DNA of 64,000 nucleotides from Octopus vulgaris (Eukaryota), in the NCBI GenBank assembly GCA_951406725.2, contig OX597828.1, positions 34,596,001 to 34,660,000 of the forward strand. Reading direction: 5' to 3'. A program made the translations under genes and the position numbers. Shown piece by piece: positions 464-64,000 of the stretch (positions are counted from its first letter, which is position 1; every line of letters starts with the position of its first letter). The notes under the pieces were generated by a model. The model was not told the origin of the DNA. It saw only the letters and a program-made list of their open reading frames with translations, and did not search any database.

Positions 464-635
464 TACACAGAGAGAAAAAAAACACAGAAAGAAGGAGAGA
501 AAAAAATGCGTGCAGTAACTAACGAATCAACATGGCGATCTGATTTCGGCCAGAGGTCAAAGATCAAACATGAGACGCGAGAGCGAAATAAGGGGAGATA
601 ATAGGGATGATAATAGGGTTGAATGACCCTAGGAT

Positions 636-860
636 AGGTCTGGACAGGCGTATGTATGGGGTTGGTGTATGTATTAGTATGTATTAGTATGTATTAGTAC
701 GTATTAGTATGTATAAGTGTGTGTGTGTGTGTATGAGAGAGTATAAGTGCGTATGAGGGGTCTGGACGTGTGTATGTATAGGGTTGGTGTATGTATTAGT
801 ATGTATTAGTATGTATTAGTACGTATTAGTATGTATTAGTTGGTGTATGTATTAGTATGG
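636..860. repeat. (GTATGTATTA)n 10-mer repeats within a ~120-bp tandem duplication in the PLE 3' UTR
   Basis: GGTCTGGAC...GGGGTTGGTGTATGTATTAGTATGTATTAG occurs at about 636-715 and about 758-840. Confidence 0.8.
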
Positions 861-3800
861 CACATCATATATGATGTGATGTGTAAAGTCGTGTGGTGTA
901 GTGAGGAGAAGAGGGGGAGGGGGAGAAGAGGGGGAGAGAAGGGGAGGGGAAGGAGAGGGGGAAGAGGAGAGGAGGGGGGAGAGAAAGGAGGGGGAGGAAG
1001 GAGGAAAGGGGGGAGGAAGGAGGAAAGAGGGGGAGGGGGAGAGAGAAGCGGAGTGAGGGAACAGAGGGAAGAGGGAAGGAGGGAGGGAGAAAGAGGGAAG
1101 AAGGGAAGGGGAGTAGGGGTGAAAGGATGAAGGACTGAAGAAGTAGGGGTCGGGGGGAAGGATAGGTGAGGAGGGGGAGAGGGGGTTAGATGAGGAGGGG
1201 GAGAGTTGAGACCAAATGGCGTATAAGAGCGAAGAGAGAAGATTAATTCCTGTTCACGGCGCAAACGGGAATCCGGATGGCCTCTGTGTAAGGACAAACC
1301 GAACACAGATAGGTGTTGCAAGGAGTGATCGGTGGAGCGGAAATGGCGTGAGACCGGTGTGTCGTTCGCAAGGTGGATGTCACGAAGGTGTTCCGCGAAC
1401 CGGTCAGCCAAGCGGCGTCCCGTTTGTCCGATGTACAAGGAATTGCAGAGAGAGCAAGAGACGCAATAGATAATATTGCTGGAGGTGCAGGTGAAGGAGT
1501 GGATGATGGGATAGGGTCGATGGTGGGTGCTAGTGAGGCGGGTGGTGTTGGAGAGGTAAGGGCAAGTGCGGCAACGTGGGCGGGAGCAGGGGAACGAGCC
1601 GGGTTGGGAGGTAGGGTCAGGGAAGGAGCTATGGACCAAAAGGTCTCGAAGGTTGTGGGCTCGTTTGAAAGAGGGGAGGGGTCGGTTAGGGAAGAGGTGT
1701 GAAGTGGACGGGTCGGACTGGAGATGACGGAAAGCTCGAAGAATGGTGCGTTGGAGACGTAGGGTCGTGGGGTGGTAAGTGAGGGGAAAAGGGAGGCGGG
1801 AGACTACAGGGCGGGTTCGGGGAGAGAGAGCAGATACACGGTCCACGGACCGTGCTCTGGCAAGGGTGGTGTGGATAGTGGTGAGGGGGTATCCACGTAG
1901 GGTGAAGTGGTGAGCCATACGTTGAGACTGAGTCTCAAAGTCATGGTCGTCACTACAGAGCCTACGTAGACGGAGGAATTGGGAATAGGGGATGGAAAGC
2001 TTGGTGTGTTCTGGGTGGGAGGAAGAGAAGTTGAGGTATGAGTGTGAGTCTGTGTGTTTGTAGTGAATGGAGGTGGTAAGAGTGGAGTGAAGAATGCTAA
2101 CCGAAATGTCGAGGAAGGAGACAGAGGTGTTGGAGATAGTGGAAGTGAAGTGGAGGGCTGGTTGGAAAGATTGGACGAAAGAGAGGAAGGAATCTAGATG
2201 TTCGCGGGAGAGTGAGGGGGCACCGATAATGTCGTCAATGTAACGACCATATAGTTCAGGAGTGGGACCAGTGAAATTAGAGAATATTTGGGCCTCAACA
2301 TAGCCAACGAACAGGTTCGCATAGTTGGGGCCCATTCGCGTTCCCATGGCCACTCCCGAGATCTGATGGTAGAACTCGCCCGCGAACGAGAAGCAGTTCA
2401 GAGTAAGGACAAGTTCGGCCAGACGAATGAGTGTGGAGGTGTCAGGTACAGGGTTAGAGCGGAGGTCAAGAAAGTGTCGAAGGGCCTGCAGTCCTTCGTG
2501 GTGAGGGATAACAGTATAGAGGCTTTGGATGTCCATAGTAAAAAGGATTTTGGAGGAGCCGGGAGGAAAGGAGAAAGAGTTGAAAAGCCGGAGAGCATGG
2601 TTGGTATCGTGGATGTGGGAGGGAAGAGATGCCACTAGGGGGACAAGGACACGGTCGAGGTATTTAGAGATGAGCTCCGTGGGGCAGTTACAGGCGGAGA
2701 CGATGGGGCGGCCAGGGTTGTTGGGTTTGTGGATTTTGGGGAGGAAGTAAATGGTGGGGGTACGTGGGGTTCGCACAATTAGGTTGGATGCGGTGCGGGG
2801 GAGACGGGAGGACGAGATGAGGTCGCGGACAGTAGAGGATACCGTCTGTTGGTAGCTACGTGTGGGGTTAGAGGGCAGAGGGGAATAGAAGGAGGTGTCA
2901 TTGAGTTGGCGGAAAGCCTCGGCCCTATAGAGGTCCGCGCGCCACACCACTACAGCTCCACCCTTGTCAGCCGGTTTGATGATAATGTCAGCGCGCCGTT
3001 GGAGGGAACGAAGAGCCAAGAGCTCAGCCGGGGAGATGTTGAGGCGGCGTTGGCGAAGTTGGCGAAGTTGAACCGCTCCAATGCACGCTGACAAGCGCCC
3101 GCGAAAAGATCCACTGCTAGGATCTGGCCAGGGGCAGGCGTCCACGGGGATGGTCGGCGGCCCAGGCCAGTGAAGCAATACTCTTCGTTGGGTGTGGGTG
3201 GCGAGTCGTGGTAATGCGCACTCAACCGGACACGGCGCACAAAGCTGTGGACATCAACTCGCGTCTGGAATTCCTTACAGGATGGAGTGAGGGGGATGAA
3301 ACGCAGACCCCTACCAAGGACGGAGCGTTCAGCCGCAGAGAGGGGAAGATCGGGGGGAATGGTAACAACAGACGGAAGTGGAGAAGGGGTGGGTGGAATA
3401 GAAGTAGGAGGGGTGGTAGGTCTCGTGGAGGTCTGAGGGGGAGGGATTGGGGAGGTGTGTGGGGGTGGTTGGGGGGGCAGTAGGGTTAGGTGTAGGTGGA
3501 TGGAGCCTATCGGGAGGGGAGAAGGGGTTGTAGGGAGGGGCAGTGGGGTTAGGTGTGGGTGGATGGAGCCTATCGGGAGGGGAGAAGGGTGGTGGAGGAG
3601 TTGGGGTAGTGGCGTCGGGTAGGGTGGAATGGAAGAGTGATTGGAGTTTACGAAGTTTGGTATCAGAAAGAAATTGATGGAAGAGTTGATTCAAATGGAT
3701 AATGAAGCGTAGCGTGTTTGGCGCATAGAGAGGCGGCAGAGAGGAGAAGAAGGTGGAGAAAGCAGGAGGAAGAAGGCGGTTGATGGCATGTAGTTTAGAG

Positions 3801-4090
3801 AGATTGGAGCGAATGGTGGCCCGCATAAGGCGGTAAGATGTGGTGCGGAGTATGGGTAAGATGGAAGAATCCGAGTGGAGAGCAGGGTGGAAGTGGAGGC
3901 GGAAACCTTTAGGGATGAGTCGGTGATGTAGGCAGCGGCTTAGGAAAGAGACATGGCTAGAGAAGCGGGTTTTTTTTAAAAGAAGTAGAGAGAGATTAAC
4001 GGACGGCTGAAGGCAATATACAGGAAGAGAACGGAGATGATCCTTCAAACGGTGATGGAGGGTGAGGAGGTAGGACCTAGGATCCGGCAT
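836..4090 (-). pseudogene. PLE polyprotein (N-terminal domain, reverse transcriptase, Cys linker, GIY-YIG endonuclease) split by two frameshifts
   Basis: Motifs in order: LSRCLHHRLIPKGFRL; VLGRGLRFIP (middle frame); IIIKPADKGGAVVV (DKG); YFLPKIHKPNNPGRPIVS; GVAMGTRMGPNYANLF; RYIDD; CSRPRCRTC linker; NIIYCVSCSLCNSLYIGQTGRRLADRFAEH...PFGLN. Frames change at about 3400-3480 and about 3065. Confidence 0.92.
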
Positions 4091-4291
4091 GATGGGATAG
4101 CGGAAAAAAACAAACGTTCGAAAAAACAAAAAAAACAAAAAACAAAAAATTATCGTATGAAAAAAATAGAAAAAAAGGATAGCGAAAAAAGGGGAAAAAA
4201 CAAACGTTCAAAAAAACAAAAAAATAATAATCGTATGAAAAAACTAGATAAGTAAGCGATAGGGGCAGAAAAGACGGGGCAAACGGAAAAG

Positions 4292-4322
<31 letters not shown>

Positions 4323-4369
4323 TATATGTATATGCGTGTGTGTGTGATTATTATTATTATTATTATTAT

Positions 4370-4993
4370 TGTCATTCACTTTTAATCTGCATGTTTGATG
4401 CAATCACTTGCCGGGGCACACCCAGCGCCCTAGGGCAAGTGAAGGTTAAGAGTTGTTGAAATATAGCTGAAAGCTTGGGGAGGAAGTAGAGAAATATCTC
4501 CATGTAATACAACACAAATATTTATATTGATAGGGTTTTTCTAAGGATGTGGGCAGTACTTGTTAGCACAATCTTTTGGATTTCCTTGAGACATGGTTCT
4601 CCAGGGATATTGTCTCGGTGTTTCTGACATCCCTTTTTTATCATACCTAGGGCACCTACAATAACAGGAACAGTTTTTGTTTTAAGATTCCATATCTTTT
4701 GTATTTCGATTTCCAGGTCCTTATATTTACTATTTGTCAAATTCCTTTACAAATATATTGTTATCAGTGGGGACGCTTACCTCTATTAGTCTGCAGGTAT
4801 TTTCTTCCCTGTCTTTAAGAATTATATCTGGTCGATTAGCCCTGATCGTTCTGTCAGTGTTGACTGGAAAATCCCAGAGGATGGTGACATTTTTACCTTC
4901 AACAACTGGCTGAGGATGATGTTCATACCAGTTAGCAGGAGTGCCGAATTTGTAGTGTTTACATATCTTCCAATGTATATACTGTCCTACCCT
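4370..4993 (-). mobile_element. 5'-truncated R4/Dong-clade non-LTR retrotransposon (RLE domain and 3' UTR)
   Basis: YIHWKICK..WYEHHPQPVVE..ILWDFPVNTDRTIRANRPDIIL..LIEVSVP..KYKDLEIEI..VPVIVGALG. 3' UTR hairpin CACTTGCC/GGCAAGTG at about 4406-4441. (TTA)n flanks both ends. Confidence 0.9.
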
Positions 4994-5286
4994 ATTATTA
5001 TTATTTTTATTATTATTGACATAACGTGTGTGTGCCAATGAAACGCCAATGAAATGTAGTTTTCGTAAGAGAAAACATCTCTTTATAGACGTATTGTGTG
5101 AAAGAAACAAATAAAACAAAACCATACTTCAGAGCTTGACGCAACGAATGCACACCGGAAGTAACTGATAGAACGACCGATGCGCATTCTCCATTTCTTT
5201 TTTTTTTTTTTGAAGCGAGGTCGAATCACACACAATTCTGTTCTATGTGTCACAGTAACGATACACAATCTCTAGACCTGTTTCGA

Positions 5287-5525
<239 letters not shown>

Positions 5526-6097
5526 ACACACACATGTATGAATATATGCACGTATGCATATGGGAAAATGTAACATCATAATTTTTGTTGTTGTTGTTGT
5601 TATTCAGCAGATGACTCAACGTTGTTATTGCCTGTCACTAAAGAGAGCCATCTTTCCTGGTTGGTTGCTAGCACTTCCTCTTTTACAGAAATCGGAAGAA
5701 TACGGAGCAGCACAAGACACCATTAACATCTATAAACTATCTTTTTCTCTTTCTTTTCTCTTTCTTTTTCAATACAGTTTTTATCGAAGTCCACCACCAC
5801 CACCACCACCATCACTACCACACCGGATGCGTATTTGCTATTGTGTCAGTTGACAAATAAAGATGTCAATACAAAAAGTAGCTGCTTTCCTGGCCCTGGC
5901 AAACTTCCATTACGATCAAGTGACGACAGATCAGTGAACGGGACCAGTTTATGTCGTAACGGAAATATCCAGCATGCATGCGCTGTTCGCCAAATTACGT
6001 AAAGGTATCTCCATATGAACGACTTCGAGGCTTCAGTGATTATTAACTCATCCATGATATTTGCAAGACACATATACGCACACATGCATACATACAT

Positions 6098-6523: not shown

Positions 6524-6680
6524 GTATACATGCATACATGCATACATGCATACATACATACATACATACATACATACATACATACATACATACATACATA
6601 CATACATACACCATATTTTTACTAATAGAAATATCATTATTTCTAATTCTCTCTAAAAGAGACTACGGCAGCGGTACTGG

Positions 6681-6985
6681 ATATTAATAGTTATCGCCGA
6701 GCTAACATGACAGTCCAGAAAAATAGGACGAATGCTGCCGTCAGCAGCGACGCCTGCTGGATTCGGCTACTCCACATTGATAAGAGGCAAACACCTCGAA
6801 ACTAGTCTGTGGGTGCCAGACCAGCAAGGGGAAGCTGCTGACTTCTCCAGTTTGAAGGTTATAATGAACACAGGATTGTGTATCACATAGCTAGCTAGAG
6901 GCGATGGCCTCTTAGAGCTAATCAACGGTAGCATTCGTCCTATTTATCTGGACTGCCAAGTTAGCTTGGCGATAACTGTTGATAT
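6681..6985 (+). mobile_element. Fold-back mini-element with 61-nt inverted arms enclosing a hammerhead
   Basis: Arms 6681-6741 and 6925-6985 match at 54 of 61 positions; a hammerhead motif lies inside. Confidence 0.75.
6740..6842 (+). ncRNA. Type I hammerhead ribozyme, U3-A8 variant, with extended stem I
   Basis: CCACA-TTGATAA-GAGG caaaca CCTC-GAAA-C TA GTC-TGTGG (6772-6812). Stem I continues through GGC/GCC, TGCTGG/CCAGCA and GTCAGCAGC/GCTGCTGAC. Confidence 0.82.
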
Positions 6986-7039
6986 AGTTTTACTAATGTT
7001 TTATGTGTATAGCTACGCATGTGTAGTCAAACAATTCAA

Positions 7040-38265: not shown

Positions 38266-38372
38266 GCGATTGTGATGACGGTGGTGATGATCGTGATGAT
38301 GATGAAGACAGCGTAATGATAACTAGAATAATTACCAAACCAAAAATAGCATCATAATTGTTGTAGCTACTG

Positions 38373-38420
<48 letters not shown>

Positions 38421-38657
38421 TAAATAATAACTGGTTTCGGATTTTGACACAAGGCCAGCAATTTCGGGGTGGGAGCGTTTCGTTTAGTCGATTACATCGA
38501 CCTCCCCAGATGTCAGTTGGTACTTTATTTCATAGACCCCCGAAAGAGATGAAAAGCAAAGTCGACATCGGCGGAATTGGAGCTCAGAACGTACGGACGG
38601 ACGAAATGCTGCTAAGCATTTTGTCCGGTGTGTTAACGATTCTGCCAGCTCGCCGCC

Positions 38658-38723
<66 letters not shown>

Positions 38724-38825
38724 GCGATAAAACTAGGAAGTACAAGGAATCCTACTGGTTTAATAATATTAATAATAATGATAATGATGATGATGATAAT
38801 AATAATGATAATGATGATGATGATG

Positions 38826-38872
<47 letters not shown>

Positions 38873-38914
38873 GATGATGATTATCATTATAATGATAATG
38901 ATGATGATGATGAC

Positions 38915-38970
<56 letters not shown>

Positions 38971-39000
38971 TAATAATAATAATAACAATAACAACAACAA

Positions 39001-39560
39001 TGACACAACAATGTGGCCAGATATGTCCACTCTCTGCTGTGTGGTAAAGCAAACCTCGAGAGAGGGAATAATGGAAAATGAACCTTACAAAATACTCTGG
39101 GATTTTAACATACAATGCGTCCAAGTCATAGAGGCGAGACGGCCAGATATTGGGCTCATCCACAAAGATGAAAAAGAAGTAAAGATAATAGATGTTGTAA
39201 TACCAAGAAATTCGAGAGTGAAATGTAAGGAAACAGAAAAGACTGAGAAATACCAGCGACTGCAGGACAAGATAGGAAAAATATGGGACATGAGGCAAGT
39301 AATGGTGATACCGGTGGTAATTGGAGCATTAGGAGCAGTTTCCAAGAGCTTTGAAAAACATATTCAGAATATTGGAGCTGCTGCCAGGTTCGAAGTGATC
39401 CACAAGACAGCATTGTTGGGTAACAGCTCGCATTCTAAGGAGAGTATTGTCTCTTTGAGTCACAGGAGAAGGCACTACTCGAAACTTTGGGGGATTTGTT
39501 ATTGCCTGCTTTCAAGTAAAGAAAAACCGGAAATAGAACAGCAGGAATCAAAACAACAAC
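39001..39560 (+). mobile_element. R4/Dong-clade RLE fragment in an (AAT)n tract
   Basis: HNNVARYVHSLLC (alternative frame)...ENEPYKILWDFNIQC..VIEARRPDI..IIDVVIP..EKTEKYQRL..VIPVVIGALG, flanked by AAT/AAC repeats. Confidence 0.88.
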
Positions 39561-39584
39561 AACAATAATAATGATGATGATGAT

Positions 39585-40760: not shown

Positions 40761-41117
40761 AAAAAGACGGACGAAATTCCGATCGACGATTAGTTCGACT
40801 AAAATTCCTCAAAGTGGTGCTCCAGCATGGCTGCATTCTTATGAATGAAACAAGTAAAACAGTAAAAACAAAACAAAACAATGGTAATTGTTTCAAAATT
40901 TGTCACGAGGCCAGCAATTTTAGGCAAGGTACGGTTGGTGAAGTAGTTGATTCATCAACGCTAGTGATTGACTGTTACTTTATTTTCTGTTAGTTTACTC
41001 TTGGGTTGACTCATTAAAAAACAACGACGAGGTACTATACAGAGAGTAGGAAGACAAGACTTATGTAACATTTCTACTTTATCGATAACATAAAATTATT
41101 CAAATTACGATTTCAAA

Positions 41118-41656
41118 GCAGTTCTAGTGATGTAAACATTATCGATTGCACATACACGGTTTATGCGATTTGTGTATTCGCTGCTGGATATCAGTTGGGG
41201 AAGCTCCCTAATAACGCTGGGTATTAAAACATGTGAAAGTCATAGATCAGGTGAGACAACTCGCTTCGGATCAAACCTAAGTGTGTTGGATATCGATATT
41301 TCTCGCCATTATTGTCGCATTTGGCTCGAACCGAAGCCGAATTGAATCCCCAGTCTATGACTGTATACAAGTAGTGTGAAAACTATTTGATGATATGCCA
41401 CGGCGATGCGTCATCGGTTCGATACCAGTGCTTGGTGTCGATAACCCACAATAATGGTGAAATACCGATTTCTACTACCCTTGGGGACGATCCGAGGCGA
41501 GTTGTCTCGCCTGGCCTATGACTTCAGAGGTGTTTTAACACCCAGCGTTATTAGGAAGTCTCCCTAAGTGCTATCCCGCAGTAAATTCGGCGGATAAACA
41601 AAATGCATATATTGTGTGTGTGCGATCGATAATAAAACTATTTGCTGGGCGATTGC
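41118..41656 (+). ncRNA. Putative long rod-like hairpin RNA or old fold-back element
   Basis: Arms at about 41138-41315 and 41448-41633 are complementary, with many G-U pairs and a structured apex. Confidence 0.5.
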
Positions 41657-49397: not shown

Positions 49398-50595
49398 CCT
49401 GTTTGTTTATCTGTCCTTCTCTCTTTCTCTCTTCGTATATATATATATATAATATATATATATATGTTTGTGTGTGCGCACGCTCGCGTCTGTGTATATG
49501 TATGTGTGCGCGTGTGTGTGGTGAATGCACCATCTTCACAAATGATTGCCGATTTCTTGTACTCCTTTTTGCTATCAATACTATTTCAGACATTCCATCC
49601 ATGACCACTCAGTTGACTAGTCAGCCCCGTTGCACATCTGCATGTTTTGAAATATGCGTGACAAAGGAAAGTTGGTACTTACTGGGCACTCCGAACTGGT
49701 TTTGTCTGCATATGTTGTTCTCTTCTATCGCCATAAGACTTTCAGTATATGACTTGATAAATGAAGTCACCATCAAGAGATATTTGTATCTCATTGGATT
49801 ATAGGGATGAAAGTTTGTACGACACGAGTACCAATCTCTGAGTTTCCGTGATAAGTACCTAGTGACAGGCTGAAACGAGATGACCAGTAATCACGCGAAA
49901 GTGAAGGGTTTACGGAAGAGTGTCCCTTTCTTAAAAGGATGTCGTGACAGCAGCTAGGGTTCAATCACTTCTGGTCGAAACCAACCAAGGGGATTCCTGC
50001 GTCACCGCACTCAACTGGATTACCATCACCTATGCTAGTTGCTACCACAATAGTTGGGACACTGACAGGTGCTACAACTCAGGGTCAGGATAGTGACTAA
50101 GAAGTGGCCCCCACGCTCTCCAAAACCCTGGAACTCCTGGACCAGAGCCGCACTAACGATTGCAATTTAAATCATACTCAGGACATAAATATATCGTTAC
50201 ATTTTTAGTTCGTTATGCCATGTAGGAAGTGCCCGATGATTGTGCTAGGATACCAAACGTGTTAAAAAAAACACAGTCTGGCATGCTCTCGGTACATGAA
50301 ACTAATAGTAGCATATAAAAACAGATATTGTGTTTATTAAATAATATTTCTTTCTCACCAGATGCAGTGCTTTTTTTGTTGATCTAACCATAGTACGTTA
50401 TATATATATATAGGCGCAGGCGTGACTGTGTGGTAAGAAGCTTGCTTCCCAACGACACGGTCCCGAATTCAGTCTCAGTGCGCTGCACTTTGAGCAAGTG
50501 TCTTCTATTATAGCCTCGGGCCGAATAAAGCCTTGTGAGTGGATTTGGTAGACGGAAACTGAAAGAAGCTCGACGTATATGTGTGTGCGTGTATG

Positions 50596-50646
<51 letters not shown>

Positions 50647-51011
50647 TCACCGTTTGGTTTTACTGTTTTGTTCTTACTGTCCCCAAAAGTCCCAAATTTT
50701 ATTTAATATGCTTTGCGGGAAGGACTGTTTTAACGAACTCGCATCTTCCCTACTTTCGAAACGCAGAGTAGATAAAACAAGGGACAACTAGTGAAGAGAA
50801 TGTTCTTTATGTTGCCTGTCTTGTTTCTCTATTTGTTTCTTTCGTTTTTCGAAAAAAAAGTTCGTTTTCTATGCTTTTTTATATTCTCATTTCTCTTTTT
50901 GCTCACGTTTCTTTTTATGTCCTGTACCCATATATGCATGTATATCTATTCATATATATGTAGGTATCTACATATATGTATGTTTATATTCATATATTTA
51001 CATATTATTTA

Positions 51012-51075
<64 letters not shown>

Positions 51076-51559
51076 CATACATACATACATATATACATAT
51101 ATGCGCGCGCGTGTGTATACATATACGTACGTGTGTATATGTGTGTTCTTAACTGAAACTTGACCACTGTGTCCAGCTCTCAGTATGCCCTCAGTATTTT
51201 AATCTAAACTTATTTTTACAAATCACATAAAATACATCTATCCGATTATGTTAATTAATTACAGCGAATTAAAATATTACATATGATTAATTAATTATAT
51301 TTGTTAGTTTTGGGGTTTTTTTTTTAATCTGTTGATGCTCGCTGGTAAACATTTTACATGTGTTTTATCAGCCCTGGCAACATAGCGTCGTTCATTTTAT
51401 TTGGTTGGTGGCCAATCGAAAATAATGATATTTTTCAAGCCAGTTTAGAGACTGACAGCTACGATGGCGTCAATCGAAGTTAAGAAAGCATTTGTTAGCT
51501 GTCAGTTGAGTTATTTAGCTGAAAACACCGCTTTGCGAAGCTGCACAATGACAACGAAA

Positions 51560-51700
51560 ACAGAGGAGACAGACCTACACAATTAGTTACAAGCTGAAGG
51601 TTGTTGAGTTTGTTAAACAACATAGTAACCAGGCATCTGGGTGAGAGTATGGACTACCGTTAACATTGAAATAATTATTCGTGAAGGGAGAAAATAAGAG
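51560..51700 (+). mobile_element. pogo-like transposase N-terminal (Brinker-type DNA-binding) remnant
   Basis: YTISYKLKVVEFVKQHSNQASG*EYGLP resembles Y...FKLKVV..A...GNRAA.R.F. Confidence 0.5.
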
Positions 51701-52367
51701 GAGAAAGGGAGGAGGAGAGGAAGAGGAGGAGGAGATGAAGAAGAGGAGGAGATAAAGATGAGGAGGTGAGGAAGAGGAGCAGACAGTTATGAAAACGGGA
51801 GTGGAAATAATTTAAAATTTATCATAAAGCAGCTTTGACATAAAAATAGCAAAATCTACAATTACTGGAAGATGTCATAATATTATGGATATACATTCGA
51901 CAAAGAATAGTGTGTGTATATATTGTTTTAACAAAGAGGATAATGTGTAAGGCGAAGAGATTGACAGAAGAGAGAAGAATATCATCGGATGAGTTTGTTG
52001 GATTTTCATCGTGTATCATGCTACTGTTTCATGACTTGAACATGTTAGTAAAGAATTGGATTGCACAGAATATAATTGAAGAATACGTAGAAAAGGATCC
52101 AGGAGTTTCACAAATAATTGATGAACGTCATGAAAGAAAAACACTGGTGAATACGAGCAAAAAGGTGATATGAATGGTTTGTCGTTAATATTCGTCGTGC
52201 CGCCAATTATTAATAAAATAGAATAAAGATGTAAAATAAAATAAAGATGTCGAAAATAAAGATGTAAAGATGGCGACTATAAAAAAAAAACAACAAAAGG
52301 CTTTAAACAACTCCTGTATTGTTGTATTGGTTTGTTATGTAGACGACACAAAAATCCTGTTTTACTA

Positions 52368-52728
52368 TATGGCTAAGTGGTTAGAACGTCGGACTCACAA
52401 CAATGAGGTGGTGAGTTCGATTCTCGGACCGGGCTGTGTGTTGTATCCTTGAATATGACACTTTATTTCTCGTTGCTCCAGTTCATTCAGCTGTAGAAAT
52501 GAATTGTGACATCGTCACTGGTGCCAAGCTGTATCAGCCTTTGTCTTTTCCTTGGATAAAATCGGTGGCGAGGAGAAGGGAGGCTGGCATGCATGGGCGA
52601 CTGCTGGTATTCCATAAACAACCTTGCCCGGATTTGTGCCTCGGAGGGGAACTTTCTAAGTGCAATCCCATGGTCATTCATGGTTGCAACCCCATGATCA
52701 TTCATGATCGAAGGGGGTCTTTACCCTT
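52368..52728 (+). mobile_element. tRNA-derived CORE-like SINE (fourth family)
   Basis: TGGCTAAGTGG A-box, GAGTTCGATTC B-box, and a CCTTGAATATGACACTT...TTGCTCCAG core-like segment. Confidence 0.65.
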
Positions 52729-53082
52729 AAAACAAAAACAATATTTTGCTTGCAAATATCCGGGTTTTTTTTGTCAAACTATCGCATCTCCAGCTGCTTC
52801 AGATGCCTAGATATGAAAATTGTCAACGTGTAGTACAACGGTTTAGCCTTTTTCAAAAGTGTAGAAAGTCCGACATACGACAGTTTTGCAAACATATTTC
52901 TGACTGAAAATATCATACATCGTAGAGTTACGATTTTATGCACCCAAGAAAGTATTATTGTTAAGCAGAAATTGTTGCTAATGCAAAAAGAAAAGGAATG
53001 GTGAAACTATTTTTTTTATTTTCTGAAAAAGCAATGTTTTGAACTCACAAAAGTTTTGCATAACGGCAACGATATCTATCTA

Positions 53083-53174
<92 letters not shown>

Positions 53175-53177
<3 letters not shown>

Positions 53178-54349
53178 GGTGCCTAAGATATTTGACGACA
53201 GATTTCTGTTTATGAAAAAAGTACAGATGTATAATAACAGATAATAACTTTATTTACCAAACAATGCTATGAGGATAAAAATAAACCTTCATTTCTATAA
53301 TGTTACCTCTAAAACTACCTTCAGCTTCAACAACTGCTTCTATATGAGATCTGAATCCTCCACATGCTCGAATCAAGTGGTCCTGGTTCATTTTGGACAT
53401 TACTTTGACAGCTTTCAAACACGCTTTGGTGTTATGAGCATGTTCACCTCTCTCTTAACAACACACCTCATATAATAGTCCAATCGCTTGAGATCTGGGG
53501 AATTAGAAGGCCAAATGTTAGTGGTTATGTGATCATAAAAAATTTCAGCCATCCATTCCTGTGTTACTAGAACCATGTGTGATAGTGCACAGGCTTACTG
53601 AAACACATATTGCCTTCAATTGCATACACTGTCTATCCAGGGCTTAATGATTATTTCCAGGACCTCAGTATAGGCGGCAGAGTTAACACTAAAACCTAGT
53701 GGGAAAAAGTAAGAAGGCATCACATTACTGACAAATTCTGTATGCATAACACTTGGAACTTCCGAACGGTCTGCACATAATCATCTGTCATTTCTTCTGT
53801 TAACTTTCTTATCTTGGTCATAATATTTTTCGTTTGAGAAAAACCAAATCAAATCTCCTGCTGGATTTTCAGTTTGTTTAAGAGCCTTTTAGATCTGATG
53901 TAGTGATTTTCTTTTGCTTTTTCTGACAATTTGACCTTTCCTCATCATATAAGACTTATATCTGATTTCTTTATGGACAACATTTCTGACTGTTCATTAT
54001 GACACATGGAGATCTTTTGCAATTGACCTCATGGACTTTCTAGGATTGTAATCAATGGTCTGTTGAACTTGCTGGATAAATTCAGGTGTTCTGATTATTT
54101 CAGAGCATTTAGAATGATATTTATGCTTTGATACTGGTGATACGTTTCCGTCTTCAGTCTCTAACTCCGTACAAACTTTGTAGACGAAAGATCTGGTAAC
54201 TTTTAAAACTCGAGATATTTCTAAATCGCTATGCTCAGCATTTATAACCACAATAACAGCTGAGGGTCTGCCATTATCATTATACAGAGTTAGCAAAAAA
54301 TGCAGCAATGACCCTAAAAGATATGTCCTCAAATATCTTACAAACCCTG
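53175..54349 (-). mobile_element. Tc1/mariner-superfamily transposon (maT/DD37D-like), degenerate
   Basis: TIRs CAGGGT...TAAGATATTTGA.GACA within TA tracts. Minus strand gives HSDLEISRVLKVTRSFVYKV...NPRKSMRSIAKDLHVS and IWPSNSPDLKRLDY. Confidence 0.88.
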
Positions 54350-54470
<121 letters not shown>

Positions 54471-54485
54471 GTGTGTGCGTGCGTG

Positions 54486-54556
54486 TGTGTCTGTGTTTGT
54501 ATGTATATACACACACACATACATAGTGTGAGTGTGAATTTATTCTTATACATTCA

Positions 54557-54610
<54 letters not shown>

Positions 54611-54686
54611 TGTGTTTGTATGTATGTATATACACACACACATACATAGTGTGAGTGTGAATTTATTCTTATACATTCATACATGT
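54486..54686. repeat. Tandem duplication of a ~77-bp unique block within (GT)n
   Basis: CATACATAGTGTGAGTGTGAATTTATTCTTATACATTCATACATG occurs twice. Confidence 0.85.
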
Positions 54687-54691
54687 GTGTG

Positions 54692-54745
<54 letters not shown>

Positions 54746-55211
54746 CGATATATTTCTGTTTCTACAATATTTCCGTCAATTATTTTTCAATAAACTACAT
54801 CTTGCTCAGCCTGACCCTATTGCAGAAGCCAGTTATCCTAAATGGCGCGCGATTATATCGAACCTAAAACCGCGAAATTTGTAATAATAAGCATAACAAA
54901 GGTAGTTTATAAAGCAACCCCCAATAAGTACAAAATATGTGTGCGTGAGTGTATGGCCGTGCAGGTATGTGCGTGTGTGTGCGTGCGTGTGTGTGTGTGT
55001 CGCAGAGAATTGGATATTCCATAGATTTAGGGCTCTAGAATTCATAGAAGTCTCTAAAGAAGCTGTATAGATTTAATGAGAAAAATAAACATATGCATTA
55101 TACATAGTGCATGCATACATGCATACATCCATACATGCATGCGTACATACGCATATACATATACATACATATTCATACATATGCATCCCTCCGCCCATTC
55201 CATCCGTGCAT

Positions 55212-55243
<32 letters not shown>

Positions 55244-56592
55244 GCACACGTACATGTGTTTTTAATCCGTTCCTGCTGATCTCCTATGCTTTCGCCCTCG
55301 ATAGATTTTGCTTTGCTTTTCGTTAACTTTTGCTATTTGTTTTGGCTAAATTCCATTCGGACACATTTGAGAATGTTTGTACAGTGTTAAGACGGATTTA
55401 TATAATCTATTTTATCCTTTTTTTCCTTTTTCTTTTTTCTTTTCCCTTCTTCATTTCCGGAATACTTTAGGTTGTGAAAATAAAATAAAATAAAAATGTA
55501 ACAACAAACAAATGATAAACAAAAAAAAAAGGAAGAAGAAGAAGAAAGAAAATGAGAAAGAAAAGAAAAATACAGTAAGAGAGAGTTGAAGAGAAATGGT
55601 TGCTTCAGCGGTATTGATCTTCGATGTAAATAATATGGGATAATATGAAAGATAAATAAAGGCAAAAAAAAGAAAAAAGAAACAAAGGAAACAAAATAAA
55701 CGACAACAGATAATGCATCCTATTAAATGTTAATATGTTTGTCAGAATAAAACATCGTCTGCTTTGTTTGAATTTGTTGGGTTTGTTTCTTCTTTCTCAT
55801 AATCATTGGCTGAAATTTTGTCGATAGCCTATAGACAGATTTGTTTTAGTATTGCTGGTTTTTCTTTTGTTTTCTGCGCTGACTTTAACCAGGACATTTA
55901 GTTATACATTTAGTGCGCATGCGTTTAATATGAACGAATGTTTGTTTCGGAGTCACGTCTTTTCGGATTTGAACTCGGCTGTACAGCATCTTCGACAAAT
56001 GTCGTGCAGTACGACCTTGTGGATGAAATTGGATTCACGGAAATTGTTTGTTTGGAAGTTCTTAAGATGGATTGTATCGATAATTTGGAATTAAAGCCTT
56101 GTCACGCTGTGTCATCGTTTCTCATGCCTGAACTTTAAGTAACTTTCGATTCCAAGAAAGTTAAGATACATTCTCGAAGCTAACCAACAAAATATCAGAT
56201 ATCGAATTATAAAACTTAAAAGGAAGAATATGTCACGAAAACATTCCACTCATTTTTTTTTCTGTCTCGTATTAATACCTTTGAGCAGATTGAACTCGGA
56301 TACAAATGCGGTGTTAAGATTTTTTTTTTAATATGCGCAACCAAATTGTACATGGCAGACGATAAATAACTATTTAATACTACACGGATTAAATAGTTGA
56401 ATTGATATGAGATTAGGTTCTAAAGAAGAAGCTGAACAACATGGAAGAGAGAAAAATTAATCAAGTACAACAGCCTCAAGCATGATAAAGAATTAATCCA
56501 AACACAGACTTCTAAATAAAAAGAAACCAATAAACCTGATAGTGTACAAAGTACACATAAATAATTAAAAGAAAAAGCTGTTTAGAAAGGAA

Positions 56593-56811
56593 TAGCGTAG
56601 TTTTCGGTATACAAGTCGACGTGGTAAATAATGTAAACATTCAAACATCGCCACTATCTTTCCAATTCCTGCTGTATTTCCCATGGAATTTTTGCTCGTC
56701 TGATGTTGTCTTGGTGTATAAGTCGACCTATTTTTTCATTTTTTCTTTTGTCATATTTTTGCTCTAAATTTTGGTCGAAAAAACTCGATTTGTATATCGG
56801 AAAATATGCTA
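56593..56811. mobile_element. pogo/Tigger-type MITE
   Basis: TAGCGTAGTTTTCGGTATACAAGTCGA matches the reverse complement of the right end, TAGCATATTTTCCGATATACAAATCGA; internal GTGTATAAGTCGAC repeat. Confidence 0.65.
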
Positions 56812-57499
56812 TTATAAATGGATGGAATCAATACTTAAAAGAGAACGAAATTCAAGAATGAAGTTAATAGACATCAAATACTCTTGTTGTCCTTGATATA
56901 AATTATAGTTGAAATATTCTTTATCAGACGCTAAGTTAATTAGCGAAAATAAACAGAAAAATAAGAAAATTAATTGCTGTATTTAGAATATACTACTAAA
57001 ACATCTGAAATAGATGGATTATATTGCCATGGATACAGGGAGGTAAAAGTGTCTCTGGGAAACAATCATAAAATGTCCGCCATAGGACTACAAAGCATCT
57101 GGTAAAGAAGAACGGAAAATTAATATAATTAACTACAAAACACGAGTAAAACATAAGCAGTTTTCTGTTTTCAAGGAAGTCAATAATTATTTTTTATCTT
57201 TCACTTGCTTCAATCATTGGACTGCGGCCATGCTGAGCCACTGCCTTGAAATGTTTTAGTGGAACAAATCGACCCTAATACTTATTTTTTCAAATATGTT
57301 ACTTGTTCCATCGGTTCTTCCATGGATAAAGTAGATCTACACACAAAAAATTAATCGTAAATTTGTTTGAGAAATGCAGGAGTCAAAGCTGGATACAAAG
57401 AATTCTGATTGTACGCAAGATCAAAGCCTTGTCACAGCAAACCACTTAAAGCATGTAATGATGTATAGGAGTGACTGTAGATATGTGATTTTAGGAGGT

Positions 57500-57988
57500 G
57501 GAAAATATAATTATGTACTTTATCGTTGGCCACTCGCTCTTACTCCAGAGAACACTTGTACAATGATCACAGCGTTAACTCATTCATACAATGGAAATTA
57601 TCTCAGTATTAGGAAATACTAACAGAAAGGACATGGTATACAGATACAGCAACAAGGGGCTTAGAGGATAATAAAACAAACAGTCTGAGATATGCTGGTT
57701 CATTGCATACCAAGGGATAAAAAATAATTGACCAGATATTGTTGTGAAGGACCGGTTTGAAGGGATGCGTTTTCTCATCGAAGTTGTAGTCCCATCAGAC
57801 GACCATGGATCTTGTTTAAAGAAATGAACAAACTATCCAAATACGAAGATCTGGAAATAGAGATAACCAAGATATGGGGATTGCAAACAGAAACAGTCCC
57901 TTATAGCTGTTTGTGTGTTACGAATGATTAAAACAAAAGCATGCAGACAAATACATAAACAGGAACTCAGAGCTTACAAATATACAAG
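57500..57988 (+). mobile_element. Old R4/Dong-clade RLE remnant
   Basis: PDIVVKDR...FLIEVVVPSD...KEMNKLSKYEDLEIEITKIWGLQTETVP, with stops and frameshifts. Confidence 0.75.
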
Positions 57989-58184
57989 GCAGGGAGGGAA
58001 AGAATAACTTCTGAACATAGTAAAGCTATGGCTGTTGGGTAAAGAAACTCGCTTCGTAACCACGCGGTTTCGTGTTCAATCCCACCGCGCAGCATCATGG
58101 ACAAATGTTTTTTGCTAAAATCTCGGGCCGACCAACGACTTATGAGTGAATTTAAAAGACTGAAACTGTGTTGAAGTTCGTCTG

Positions 58185-58254
<70 letters not shown>

Positions 58255-58503
58255 GAAATAAGAGCTTAAATGCACTAATATATATATATATATATATATA
58301 TTGAAAAATGTCGTGAGAATTCTGGAAAGAACTCTTTTTATTTTTTTATTCTCTGTTGTTTTTTATATCTTCATTTTCGTATTAGCGCTTTCGTTTGTCT
58401 TTCGAGGCGAACGAAATTATAATTTTTATAATAATAAAACAAGTTCTTTCCAAAATTCTGACGACTTTATTTCAATATTCAATTCTGTACATCACACCTA
58501 ACA

Positions 58504-58578
<75 letters not shown>

Positions 58579-59163
58579 AATATATATATATATATGTCAT
58601 ATATATTATATATATTTATATACATATATACATACATATATATATATGTATGTATGTATTATATGTTTGTGTGTGTGTGTGTTATTGTGTTTGGCATCCC
58701 GTCGTTTGCCAACCGGTATTTGTTTGTTTATGTTATCGGCAAGAAAGACCGGTAGGATCCAATCTTATTTTGCTTGTGGGCCCCCTGAGAGCTATTTTAT
58801 CATCTGTGGACCCCATATATGCACATTTAATTTTTGGAATAAGATATTTGTTTGTAGGTTCGTAAAAACCAACAATGAATTTCGTTACATTCATAACATA
58901 GATTCCAAATACAAATCTTGAAAATTTCAATAGATACAGGTACCTCTCCTAGGAAACAAAATTTATATATGGACCCACAGATTACAACTTTTTACTCGTG
59001 GAACCCCTTAAAGCTTCTGTGAACCCCGGTTGGGAAACGCTGGACTAAACCCATCCAAACCGTCACCCAGCATGACCGGAGTTCAATGAGTTTCTCAGTT
59101 GAAAGCAAAACGATAAAATAACCAGCAGTATTTGAGACTGCACACACACATACACACTCTCTA

Positions 59164-59197
<34 letters not shown>

Positions 59198-59734
59198 TCA
59201 CACATACACACACATACACACACACACACACAGACACACACACACGCACACACATATGTGCTGCTGTTGACTAGTGCTAATGCTGTGAAATCACCCGAAA
59301 GATCACGCAATAACAGTAAGAGTTGTGAACACTTAGATTCCATACAGAAGATTACATGTTATATAATATAATATAATATAATATAATATAATATGGCGGT
59401 GATGCAAGAGGGGGAAACAAGAAACATGAAAGCGGCGGAGAGTTGAAATGGAAGAGGAAGTCGAGGAGAAAAAAATAACTGAAGAAAGAAAAGAGCCACA
59501 TACACATACACACATACATACATACATACACATACACACAAACATGCACGGATACATTTTCGTGTATGTGTATAAGTATAGCTTGAAAATTGTTATGCAC
59601 TTCTTGTCTGGTGGTAACTTGAAAAAGAAGTCCGCAACGGATAATACTCGCCCACTGTTATTAATAACACTCATAAATATACAAACGAACGCAGACATTC
59701 TCACACATAACCGCACAGATATATGCATACGCAC

Positions 59735-59791
<57 letters not shown>

Positions 59792-61596
59792 TGTGTGTAT
59801 TTGTACGAGATAATTTGTACCCATGGCTCGGGTGACATCTAAACGCATATCTGTCTGTGAAGAGATCAAAGCCATCCGCTGTTGCCCAACAAACATGAAA
59901 GTATTAATTCTCTGCCCAAACAACATCAAAGTCGAAAAATGTCCTCTTAACAACAACAACAACAACTGCAAAAACAGCAGCAGCAGCAGCAGCAGCGGCA
60001 GCAGCAATAACTGATATCGATAAAATCCAAAAGCAAAACTGCAAAAACAACAAAAACAGCAACATAAATGTCCACCTCTATCCACAACAACAACAACGAC
60101 AGAAAAGAAAGGAAGGAAGGAAGAAGGAAAGAACGAAAGAAAAAAGAAAGAGAGGAAGAAAGAAAGGAAAGAAGAAAGGTAGCAAGAAAGAAAGAAATGG
60201 CAGGAAAAATGAACTTCATATCCGTCTACAAATAACCATGTTACATCAGTGAAACACACACAAACAAACACATCCATATATATATATATATATACAGAAG
60301 CACCTGTATGCACACATGTATCTGTATGTATGCATGATTATGTCTATGTATGTATGTATGTATGTATGTATGTATGTATGTATGCATTTATGTATGTATG
60401 TATGTATGTATGTATGTATTTATGTATGTATGTATGTATGTATGTATGTATGTATGTATGTATGTATGCATGTATGAATTTATGTATGTATGTATATACA
60501 TACCTACACAATCTCAAGTACACTGACACACAGTGGAGAAAATCTCACCCAACCGATTTAAATTGACTGAGGTCATATGCATTGTTTCAGCTCCCGTTAT
60601 TTCCACACACATACCCTCACACATACACACACACACACACATTCACGCACACACGTATATATACATATATACGCCGAGATATACATACGCACACTCACAT
60701 ACATGTGTGTGGATATAGAAATATAAACAGCGGTTGTACAATCTTAGGTCATCTAACGAAATATTGAATCACTGAAAGTTCGCTTCGACTCAATATGTTA
60801 TCGGTGCTATGATTTTGTGCTTATATAAATAACAACAAAAATAGAGAAGAATAGGTCTCAAATGTGCCACATAAATAAAATACGGAATATTTACCAGATG
60901 TCATGGGACATGTAGATCTTTTGATCAGTATTCACTTTATCAGTCGCTGTTGAAATAAAGACATTTATTTGTTTAGCAACACTGTAGCTGTTGTTGACGT
61001 TTCGAACAACGACTAGCTTTCAAATGGACAAGAAAATAATTCCCTGAAGAAGTTGCCGTACGTAGGAAAGTAATATTTTTGCACGCTAAAACATGTTAGG
61101 AGTGTAAACACAATTTCTATGACGAGTCTATATTATAAGCTTAAGCGTTCACGTCAATAAAAAAAAATATTTTTTCACAACCATCGGAGCGTGTAGTGCT
61201 CCTCACGAACGCACCTTCCTGTGATGGTTGTGATATATAAACAATTTTGAATAGGAACCGGAAAGCGAAGTAGGAACACGCAATGTGCATGCGCACACTG
61301 AATTCACAAACGGAAGAGAAGGATAAAAACGCAATGCACATGTCAAATTAAAACGGAAATCGAGAATAAAAGAAGCTATATAATGGTCTGCATGCTACGT
61401 CGGACATCACTATCATGCAGCTTTGGTGCAAATTTTCATGTTACACTTGTTGCTGTTAAAGATGGCGAACTGTCTGAATTGTTGGCAATTCGTACGGCTT
61501 TACGTTCCTTACGGCATTTCGTACGGCTTTGCGTTGCTTAGGTTCTGAGTTTAAATGCTTCCGAAGTCGACTTTGCCTTTCATTTCTTTCGGGGTC

Positions 61597-61685
61597 TTGT
61601 TTCACCGCGCGTGAAACAAGATCTTCATCCGCGTAAAACGATGTTGTCCGTATGGTGGGACTGGGAAGGGATTATCCATTACGAA
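61597..61685 (+). other. 89-nt mariner transposase coding fragment inserted in a family B SINE with a 19-bp duplication
   Basis: Translates PRVKQDLHPRKTMLSVWWDWEGIIHYE and is flanked by TTTCATTTCTTTCGGGGTC at 61578-61596 and 61686-61704. Confidence 0.85.
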
Positions 61686-62206
61686 TTTCATTTCTTTCGG
61701 GGTCACTGAAATAAGTACCAGTTGAGTGCCGAGGTAAATGTAATTGACGAACCTCGCTGCACCAAAATTTCAAGCTTTGTACCTATCGTAAAAAGGATTA
61801 TTGTTGCAGCCCTTACTATTCGTTAGAGCATCGTGAAATATGCGTTGACGTACTTGTTCCGGCTCTTCATGCTCTGAGTTCAAATTACGCTGAGGTCAAC
61901 TTTTCCTTTCATTTTTCTAGCACCAATAAAATAAAGTACCAGTCAAGTACTGGGATTGATGGTAAGGATTAACCCCTTCCCTTAAAAGTACTTTCTTTGG
62001 GGCCAAAGATTGAAATTATTATTATCGTTGTTGTTATTACATTTGAGAAAGTGCAGAGGATTTCAGAAGAATAGTAGTTTGTTTACAGGCAAACACAAAA
62101 ACGTACACACATACGCATACACGAGTACACATACACACACACACACACACACACAAAACATACACATAGATTCGAACATAAGTTGAAAGCAGTCTTATAG
62201 GCCACT

Positions 62207-62278
<72 letters not shown>

Positions 62279-63388
62279 AACACTGGAGGTGATAAATATA
62301 AAAATTCTGTGAAATGTATTTATGTTGTCTGTTCGTTTATTGGTAAAGGTTATAAGGCAAATATTTCTTTCCTCACTGCCTCCCCCCCCCCAACCGACCA
62401 AGTCTACAAGTGGAAGTGAAAGTGAAAGTAATACGAATATTTCGGAGATAAGTTGTAAGTTGTGGGGATGATAAAGATAGAAGAAGGAGAAGATGAAGAA
62501 GAAGAAAGCTAAGAATAATTGTTTTCGCAGCCGTTAGACATAAATATATTGTGACATTGCAATTAGTCTTTTGTGACTTTCGGAATTCTGCGTTTTGGGT
62601 TGTTTTACGATTGCAGAAATCGATTGTGTTTGCCTCCTAAACAGAACGGACAGAAATTCTTCTGATGATAAGAGAAATATATTTATTCTTGCCGAAAATA
62701 ATTTTAGCAAATTCCTAGCTGGATGATGAAAATGACCGAAATCAAAAGAAAGAAAGAAAAAAAGTAAATAAGAACTGCTGCAAGTTATAAAATTTGTAAC
62801 GTTTGTTACTACTATACGTTCAAGACCTGTCAATCTTATCATATTAGTAATATAGTTTAATAATTATAATTAAGTTTTTGTATAAAGAACCAAATTTTGT
62901 ACTAACTTAATAACTTATTTTATTAACCTTTCTGACGAAAAATCTCTCTTCTTGCTCACATCTTGATGAAATTTATAAGCCACCGTTTTTATAGTAGCGA
63001 TAGTACCGTGTATTCTTAATATCTATATATTTCTTAACTCTTTAAATACTCAAATTTATAGACCGTGTTTTTGTAATGGAGAAAATAGTGACCTCTCTCG
63101 TCGTTTCGATGAATGAAATCTCAGCACAACATAGCTGAAACGACAATCACCCAAAGGTCGCCTGTGTGCAAGGTCAAAGCTGAAGACCTCCGGTAAGATC
63201 CTCTACTTAACCCCGTCACCTCCTTCCCTCCCATCACTGGATTAATGAAGAAAGTGTTATGATGTTGATGATAATGTTTTGTTTTACCAGCACGACGAAT
63301 AGAATTATAGTAGGCATGGTCATCTTAAAATCTGAAAAACCTCATCTGCCCTGGGTCCGGTGGCGTGCTAAAATGATGTTTTTATATA

Positions 63389-64000
63389 TTGGGCTGCCAA
63401 CAAAGTTGCCGGCCGGTTTTTTTTAAATGTTAGAATTTATTTCGTTTTAAAATTTTGGAATCTATTTTTTTTTTCGAGAATTCTATTTTTGAATCATTTT
63501 GGAATCTTTTTCTTTTCTATTTAATTTTAGTTAATTTTTGTTTATTTTCAGATCATTAAAATGGAATGTCAAGTTAAGAAAAACGAGCATTTTCGACACA
63601 TTCTCTTTGCTTTTAATCAAGGTTCTAAGGCCGCAAAAGCTGCTCGCGACATTTGTGCTGAGTATGGAGAGGGTGCCATAGCTGAAAGAACCGCTAGTTC
63701 AAAAATGGAAATTTTGACTTCAAAGACGCACCTCGTTCTGGCCGTCCAGTTGAGTTCGATGAAGAACGATTAAACCATCTTTAGCACAAAAGTTCTTGTC
63801 AAACGACAAGGAAACTGGCAGAGAAATTGGAATGCTCCCACATTGCTATAGAGAAGCATCTTCACTAGATGAGAAATGTTCAGCAGTATGGAGCATGGGT
63901 TCCGCACGCTTTAAGTGACAACAACAAAAATCAACGAGCCACAATCTCCGCTGGTTTGCTTGCTCGTCACCGTTCAACTCATAGAAACAAGCAACGATTT
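63389..64000 (+). mobile_element. Mariner transposon, 5' part (pseudogenised; runs off the window)
   Basis: TA followed by a TTGGGCTGCCAACAAAGTT TIR-like end. Translation gives HFRHILFAFNQGSKAAKAARDICAEYGEGAI...DAPRSGRP...WVPHAL (WVPHEL motif). Confidence 0.9.

Follow-up and report, generated by a model that had tools for sequence, protein, structure and literature searches.

A rod-like hairpin in the Octopus vulgaris genome is most likely an old head-to-head insertion of a hammerhead-bearing repeat

The 64,000-nucleotide stretch of Octopus vulgaris DNA analysed here (the window, to whose positions all bare coordinates refer) contains a rod-like hairpin of ~540 nt. The question is whether such a structure is kept for its RNA duplex, as an earlier note on the same sequence had proposed, or is what remains of a mobile element. 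Our answer, to which we assign a probability of roughly 80%, is that two 5′-truncated and decayed copies of a ~340-nt hammerhead-bearing repeat lie head to head, likely inserted by the RT of a Penelope-like element (PLE) and likely neutral since. The hairpin at 41118-41656 is a real long inverted repeat and folds as a rod on both strands, with -272.7 kcal/mol (z -18.6) for the plus strand and -224.1 kcal/mol (z -14.5) for the minus strand; none of 100 shuffles folded as well in either case. The arms align over ~204 columns, 79% of which are paired, and comprise 151 Watson-Crick pairs, 17 G-U pairs, 6 A·C and 18 other mismatches. The earlier count of ~16 G-U versus ~5 A-C is therefore about right, though modest, as the two-sided p-value of 17:6 is 0.035 and a second count, made over the columns of the family profile and including apex columns that align poorly, yields 24:13 (p = 0.10). 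The features described alongside that count, i.e., a G-U-rich basal helix (13 pairs as read from the fold, five being G-U), a structured apex with stem-loops and the lack of a long ORF within the element, are all found. Rfam returned only chance miRNA and snoRNA matches and no ribozyme for the locus alone, and no match reached the gathering score in the whole 64-kb window.

The hairpin does not represent a unique RNA gene, its two arms being copies of a single dispersed, non-coding unit of ~340 nt, which is described by a 338-position profile and repeated in tandem with a period of ~333-350. Searching the octopus's own genome (2.8 Gb) yielded 544 first-look candidates, with the best non-self matches among the 40 scored being 76-80% identical. 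Based on 83 exact core matches and on four of 75 copies showing this core pattern, the family is estimated at ~1,550 copies (range 630-5,600), which implies a few hundred hairpins in the genome. Among the 74 loci found with hairpin-derived queries, 56 carry a head-to-tail (tandem) junction, while 23, the window included, self-align as inverted pairs, a few of which may reflect the internal stem of the monomer rather than a second copy. Of 24 new loci selected solely on the ribozyme motif, three are hairpins. Thirty of the 113 arms extend beyond one monomer (the longest spans 644 profile positions) and the inner junctions vary freely between copies. At one locus (L166:1339-2113), 2.3 monomers lie in tandem and two consecutive units carry hammerhead cores, with decayed helices in both; this locus offers the best natural dimer for a cleavage assay. 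The suggestion of an old fold-back of a mini-element stands in that the hairpin is a fold-back of a small mobile element and is old; the element is of retro-type and not a MITE.

The insertion can be dissected part by part. It reaches left to ~41100, where a tail of 37-38 nt (41100-41137, minus strand; profile positions 301-338) extends the left copy; no tail is present at the other end. The left copy itself (41138-41410, element sense on the minus strand) is a 5′-truncated monomer covering profile positions 1-285 (nhmmer, 219 bits), with 84% identity to the column majority over positions 1-190. Within it lies a broken hammerhead remnant (41283-41315, minus strand) that retains GAAA, the palindromic helix III TATCGATA, the UC cleavage site and the 3′ strand of helix I; a deletion of ~15 nt took out the catalytic core and a 2-nt insertion precedes GAAA. 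The apex (41317-41431, plus strand) consists of left-arm sequence without a mirror partner, whose stem-loops are intrinsic to the monomer, and includes the head-to-head junction at ~41410/41411. The right copy (41411-41633, element sense on the plus strand) runs from profile position ~225 to 1 (nhmmer, 207 bits), is 87% identical to the column majority and terminates at the main 3′ end of the family (…GATCGATAAT). Its degenerate type I hammerhead (41432-41478, plus strand) comprises helix I (TTGGTG/TACTAC), the core TCGATAA (41438-41444), GAAA, helix III and UC, with a nominal cleavage site that would fall after 41472. U4 has changed to C, the 10.1-11.1 pair of helix II is broken and the fold has a z of -0.69. 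Both ribozyme copies in the window are thus damaged. Finally, a third fragment of the element (41634-41656, minus strand; profile positions ~255-285, interrupted by a 9-nt gap) is a repeat of the final ~30 nt of the left arm, and its 14-mer AAAACTATTTGCTG occurs exactly in four other family copies. A side-by-side comparison identifies this fragment as the 3′ strand of the basal helix; the other strand is the tail, to which it is not homologous. The two arms are 77.5% identical and share five departures; for other copies, identity averages ~70% and peaks at 79-81%. The RNA 3′ ends of both copies point outward. While no recognisable transposon termini had been noted before, the outer ends correspond to the two recurrent 3′ ends of the repeat family: of the 113 arms, 46 terminate at profile positions 1-12 and 19 at positions 280-305, which makes 65 at either point. 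These 3′ ends often abut (TA)n or (CA)n runs, and the 5′ ends scatter.

In element sense, the family motif is ordered as helix I, UUGAUAA, a 4-bp helix II, GAAA, a palindromic helix III (TATCGRTA or CATCGATG), UC and helix I, by which the monomer is predicted to bear a type I hammerhead ribozyme with a U3–A8 core variant. U3-A8 is a known natural hammerhead covariant that was reported as active in earlier work (PMC3088659, in the text available), and U3-A8 cores are found in Cercyon PLEs (PMC4209133, likewise). A sister copy (L055) gives a sub-threshold match to Rfam Hammerhead_HH9 (31.5 bits against a gathering score of 52; E 3.7e-06). A relaxed hammerhead pattern fits 25 of the 58 rows that span the motif, with UUGAUAA in 16 of these 25, and the reversed control of the core pattern has 0 exact matches versus 83. 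In 30 motif-picked copies, for which helix II is fixed by the search pattern, the helix III pair 15.2-16.2 is UA (n = 17), CG (n = 8), UG (n = 4) or unpaired (n = 1). The covariation score is equalled by four of 500 shuffles, and helix I shows a G-C/A-U exchange (19/17), both signals being confounded by subfamilies (of 301 column pairs with p < 1e-3, only 46 are complementary). A loose hammerhead fit had previously been placed on the minus strand at 41287-41357. Its GAAA, helix III and UC (41302-41289) are indeed a real remnant, but the run CTGGGGA is not the core: a deletion has removed the true core (UUGAUAA) from the left arm, and a damaged version persists on the plus strand of the right arm. 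The term viroid-like is apt in the retrozyme sense through the link to the hammerhead. By-eye fits to the consensus of HDV-like, twister and pistol motifs failed, and a hammerhead-like run on the other strand of the monomer was dropped as it has no U-H site. Two further loci (L143, L145) give hammerhead-like matches with a canonical core under the Rfam cut-off and are unrelated to the family of the hairpin.

Both hpRNA/endo-siRNA precursors and the inverted SINEs that serve as ADAR substrates form a long imperfect duplex from two inverted copies. Likewise, either strand of the hairpin would give a long imperfect duplex if transcribed, but unlike in these systems, the locus shows no sign of constraint. 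Before a G-U excess in a single transposon-derived hairpin can be read as RNA selection, it has to be compared with sister hairpins as the null. The earlier note had itself counted multiple copies without strand bias against its proposal, and this is largely what the family presents: 25 pooled sister hairpins contain 296 G-U and 315 A·C, so no family-wide G-U bias exists. Dispersion across loci lacks significance when the window is excluded (p = 0.12) and is mild when it is included (chi2 36.8, 23 df, p = 0.034), and one or more of 23 loci would reach p = 0.035 by chance with a probability of ~56%. The most skewed of the 26 hairpins is not the one in the window but a sister head-to-head hairpin (L084, G000:C7:127481466-127482415) with 29 G-U and 7 A·C. 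In the window, non-transition mismatches are not depleted (19/204 vs 531/4211, p = 0.19); the pattern is a specific deficit of A·C, not a purge of mismatches. The 17:6 skew most likely reflects chance sampling, given that the genome is estimated to contain a few hundred hairpins of this kind.

A distinctly smaller share of the probability goes to a strand-biased mutation or repair process at this locus that involves no selection, for which we infer mechanisms such as one DNA strand preferentially folding back and undergoing G·T repair, or a displaced strand becoming deaminated. Such a process fits the specificity of the deficit for A·C, the mild overdispersion with the window included and the preponderance of A>G over T>C in the repeats of the window (80 vs 64). 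It would also agree with the variability of the arms. The hairpin is about twice as variable as its flanks: in two orthologous contigs, differences amount to 16/539 vs 12/852 (X2, p = 0.05) and 17/539 vs ~10/770 (X3, p = 0.03), flank counts being contig totals minus the hairpin, with one ambiguous X3 site (41233) left out. A further contig (X4), which covers the arms only in part, was not included in this comparison. On the other hand, the overdispersion loses significance without the window and the repeats flanking the hairpin are symmetric, with a strand asymmetry of 218:202 across the window and 78:68 at 30-50 kb (p = 0.46), i.e., no matching bias. The repeats that flank the more skewed sister hairpin even lean the opposite way (11:22). 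Literature searches on G-U/A·C asymmetry found only mitogenome papers. As a separate observation, the left repeats (5000-30000) show more A>G than T>C (53:30) and the reverse is seen at 50000-64000 (2:10) and in L150 (1:12), which, viewed post hoc, may hint at transcription or replication running in opposite directions.

Less probable again, and on balance unlikely, is that the dead head-to-head retrozyme insertion was later co-opted, its plus-strand transcript serving as a long dsRNA (hpRNA/endo-siRNA precursor or ADAR stem) in which G-U is tolerated and A·C removed, and which would feed small-RNA or ADAR pathways. The skew itself agrees with this, as does the absence of a regional mutational bias that could account for it. 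Moreover, transitions at paired sites among the orthologues lean the same way, with 10 of G-U type and two of A·C type (p = 0.039). After subtraction of the sites already in the window count, 6:1 remains (p = 0.125), and window and orthologue transitions combined give 23:7 (p = 0.005, post hoc). Among 14 hairpins folded, the window hairpin has the largest strand energy gap (-0.083 kcal/mol per nt; the next is +0.072) and is among the most stable per nt, and the insertion is present in runs under three species labels. Expression adds nothing to this: no RNA data set was listed as containing the locus, and a 153-nt contig over 41087-41239 at a depth of 4.1, from a run guessed to be RNA (X1), may be DNA and is not counted as evidence. 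However, selection on pairing should purge transversion mismatches too, and since these persist (19 fixed, eight variable), they count against co-option. None of the 21 variable arm sites is compensatory and eight toggle between a Watson-Crick pair and a transversion mismatch. The arms also vary more than the flanks, relative to which the locus is not conserved. In addition, X3 misses 9 nt at 41441, through the ribozyme remnant, a sister hairpin is more skewed (29:7), and no host exon was detected: in the 131 of 324 candidate ORFs scanned, only an RT and a Mos1 HTH are credible. What is left of the proposed RNA-level selection is weak support at best, namely a nominal p-value that chance would produce in at least one of 23 loci more often than not, and orthologue variants with the same lean. 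If true, the locus would be among a few hundred hairpins born from retrozymes that provide ready dsRNA substrates in a genome with heavy RNA editing; most likely, the locus itself is an ordinary fossil.

Which type of element left this fossil can be judged from comparison with known systems. By its testable features, and as far as sequence can tell, the family appears to be a non-LTR retrozyme or a non-autonomous PLE, and we regard the insertion as non-LTR-retrozyme-type, non-autonomous Penelope-like, with largely neutral decay. Like non-LTR retrozymes as described in the available text of Cervera & de la Peña 2020 (PMC7229834) and of Li, Clavereau & Pollet (bioRxiv 10.64898/2026.07.22.740005), it has a non-coding monomer without a long ORF (~340 nt, compared to 350-390 bp for mussel units and a range of ~150-450 bp for non-LTR retrozyme units), one type I hammerhead per unit with a short palindromic helix III, monomers and short tandems, and a structured RNA. 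It differs from them by the U3-A8 core, by mainly dispersed copies of 1-2.3 units instead of long arrays, by frequent head-to-head inversions and by the lack of visible young copies (seven exact matches to the 35-nt motif). EN+ PLEs and their pLTR minimal hammerheads (e.g., Cercyon of Schistosoma), as described in the available text of PMC4209133 and PMC8557442, resemble the family in several traits: they are truncated at the 5′ end, form partial tandems, carry an inverted and truncated copy on the 5′ side and a 30-40-bp tail that often marks just one end, insert into AT-rich or microsatellite DNA, and have the U3-A8 variant and opposite-strand hammerhead pairs. In the family, the 3′ end is likewise fixed and the 5′ truncation differs between copies, units occur as partial tandems or inverted, and a 37-nt tail is found on one side. 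Unlike EN+ PLEs, it has no RT/GIY-YIG ORF, and its helices II (4 bp) and III (3 bp) resemble the canonical type I hammerhead more than the minimal one.

Analogously to non-LTR retrozymes, source tandems would have been transcribed and self-cleaved, probably as dimers via the palindromic helix III, after which the cleaved monomers may have been circularised. A PLE RT/GIY-YIG protein acting in trans would then have nicked AT-rich DNA, and its RT would have copied more than one unit, starting at one of the two fixed 3′ points, with an inverted truncated copy joined at the 5′ side. An autonomous partner with a common 3′ end was not found among the fetched loci, in searches that scored top candidates only, and a genome search with RF02275 gave four matches, all under the cut-off and none in the family of the hairpin. 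Candidate partners were discarded: the PLE of the window (836-4207, minus strand) has no DNA similarity to the family in a profile search, and L155/L156 match only around the ribozyme, L155 not being a PLE end.

The arms could also be what is left of the pseudo-LTRs of an autonomous Penelope-like element that was heavily truncated at its 5′ end, instead of copies of a closed non-autonomous monomer, given that U3-A8 cores and pairs of oppositely oriented hammerheads, spaced 100-700 bp, were reported for truncated Cercyon PLEs (PMC4209133, in the text available). This is improbable, slightly more so than co-option, as monomer follows monomer in the family (tandem junctions, overlong arms and the 2.3-unit locus), as no unique sequence except host SINEs is shared beyond the 5′ ends of the copies, and as PLE protein matches lie near one of the 74 loci (~1 kb away and in the opposite sense) and none of the 24. 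A fold-back MITE or Helitron-derived element with the arms as terminal inverted repeats, for which the long inverted arms and a CTAG motif in the tail could be invoked, is highly improbable. An architecture of circularly permuted tandems largely refutes it, most copies have single or tandem arms (hairpins in only three of the 24 motif-picked loci), inner junctions vary freely and a hammerhead is conserved on one strand.

For the preferred reading as a retrozyme-type insertion, no published description of the family was found in the available text of the literature on octopus or cephalopod hammerheads, retrozymes or non-autonomous Penelope elements (e.g., PMC8967140), though supplements, Repbase or Dfam could hold one. 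The family would extend non-LTR retrozymes to a lineage for which the literature searched contains no report. Its two fixed 3′ points, one-sided tail and inversions would provide a large natural sample of Penelope-type integration products.

Other elements were observed in the window. A second, younger hammerhead repeat family occurs at 6620-6990 (core at 6777, plus strand), with the U3-A8 core TTGATAA and a helix III of CTAG. It counts 2,063 first-look candidates at 80-96% identity, also shows a head-to-head and tail anatomy, and has no profile match to the family of the hairpin. This single window contains at least two U3–A8 families, which would escape pipelines built on a CUGAUGA core. The minus-strand PLE at 836-4207 is near-intact, with RT (YIDD) and C-terminal GIY-YIG motifs, and is very young and abundant (15,845 candidates; 97-100% amino acid identity among the top 150). 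A degenerate minimal hammerhead of C3-G8 type lies downstream of it at ~330-380. The C-terminal part of a plus-strand ORF at 38327-39565, which has no Pfam match, resembles the endonuclease end of an R2/R4-type LINE. Finally, the Mos1-type mariner HTH fragment is located at 63531-63770 on the plus strand.
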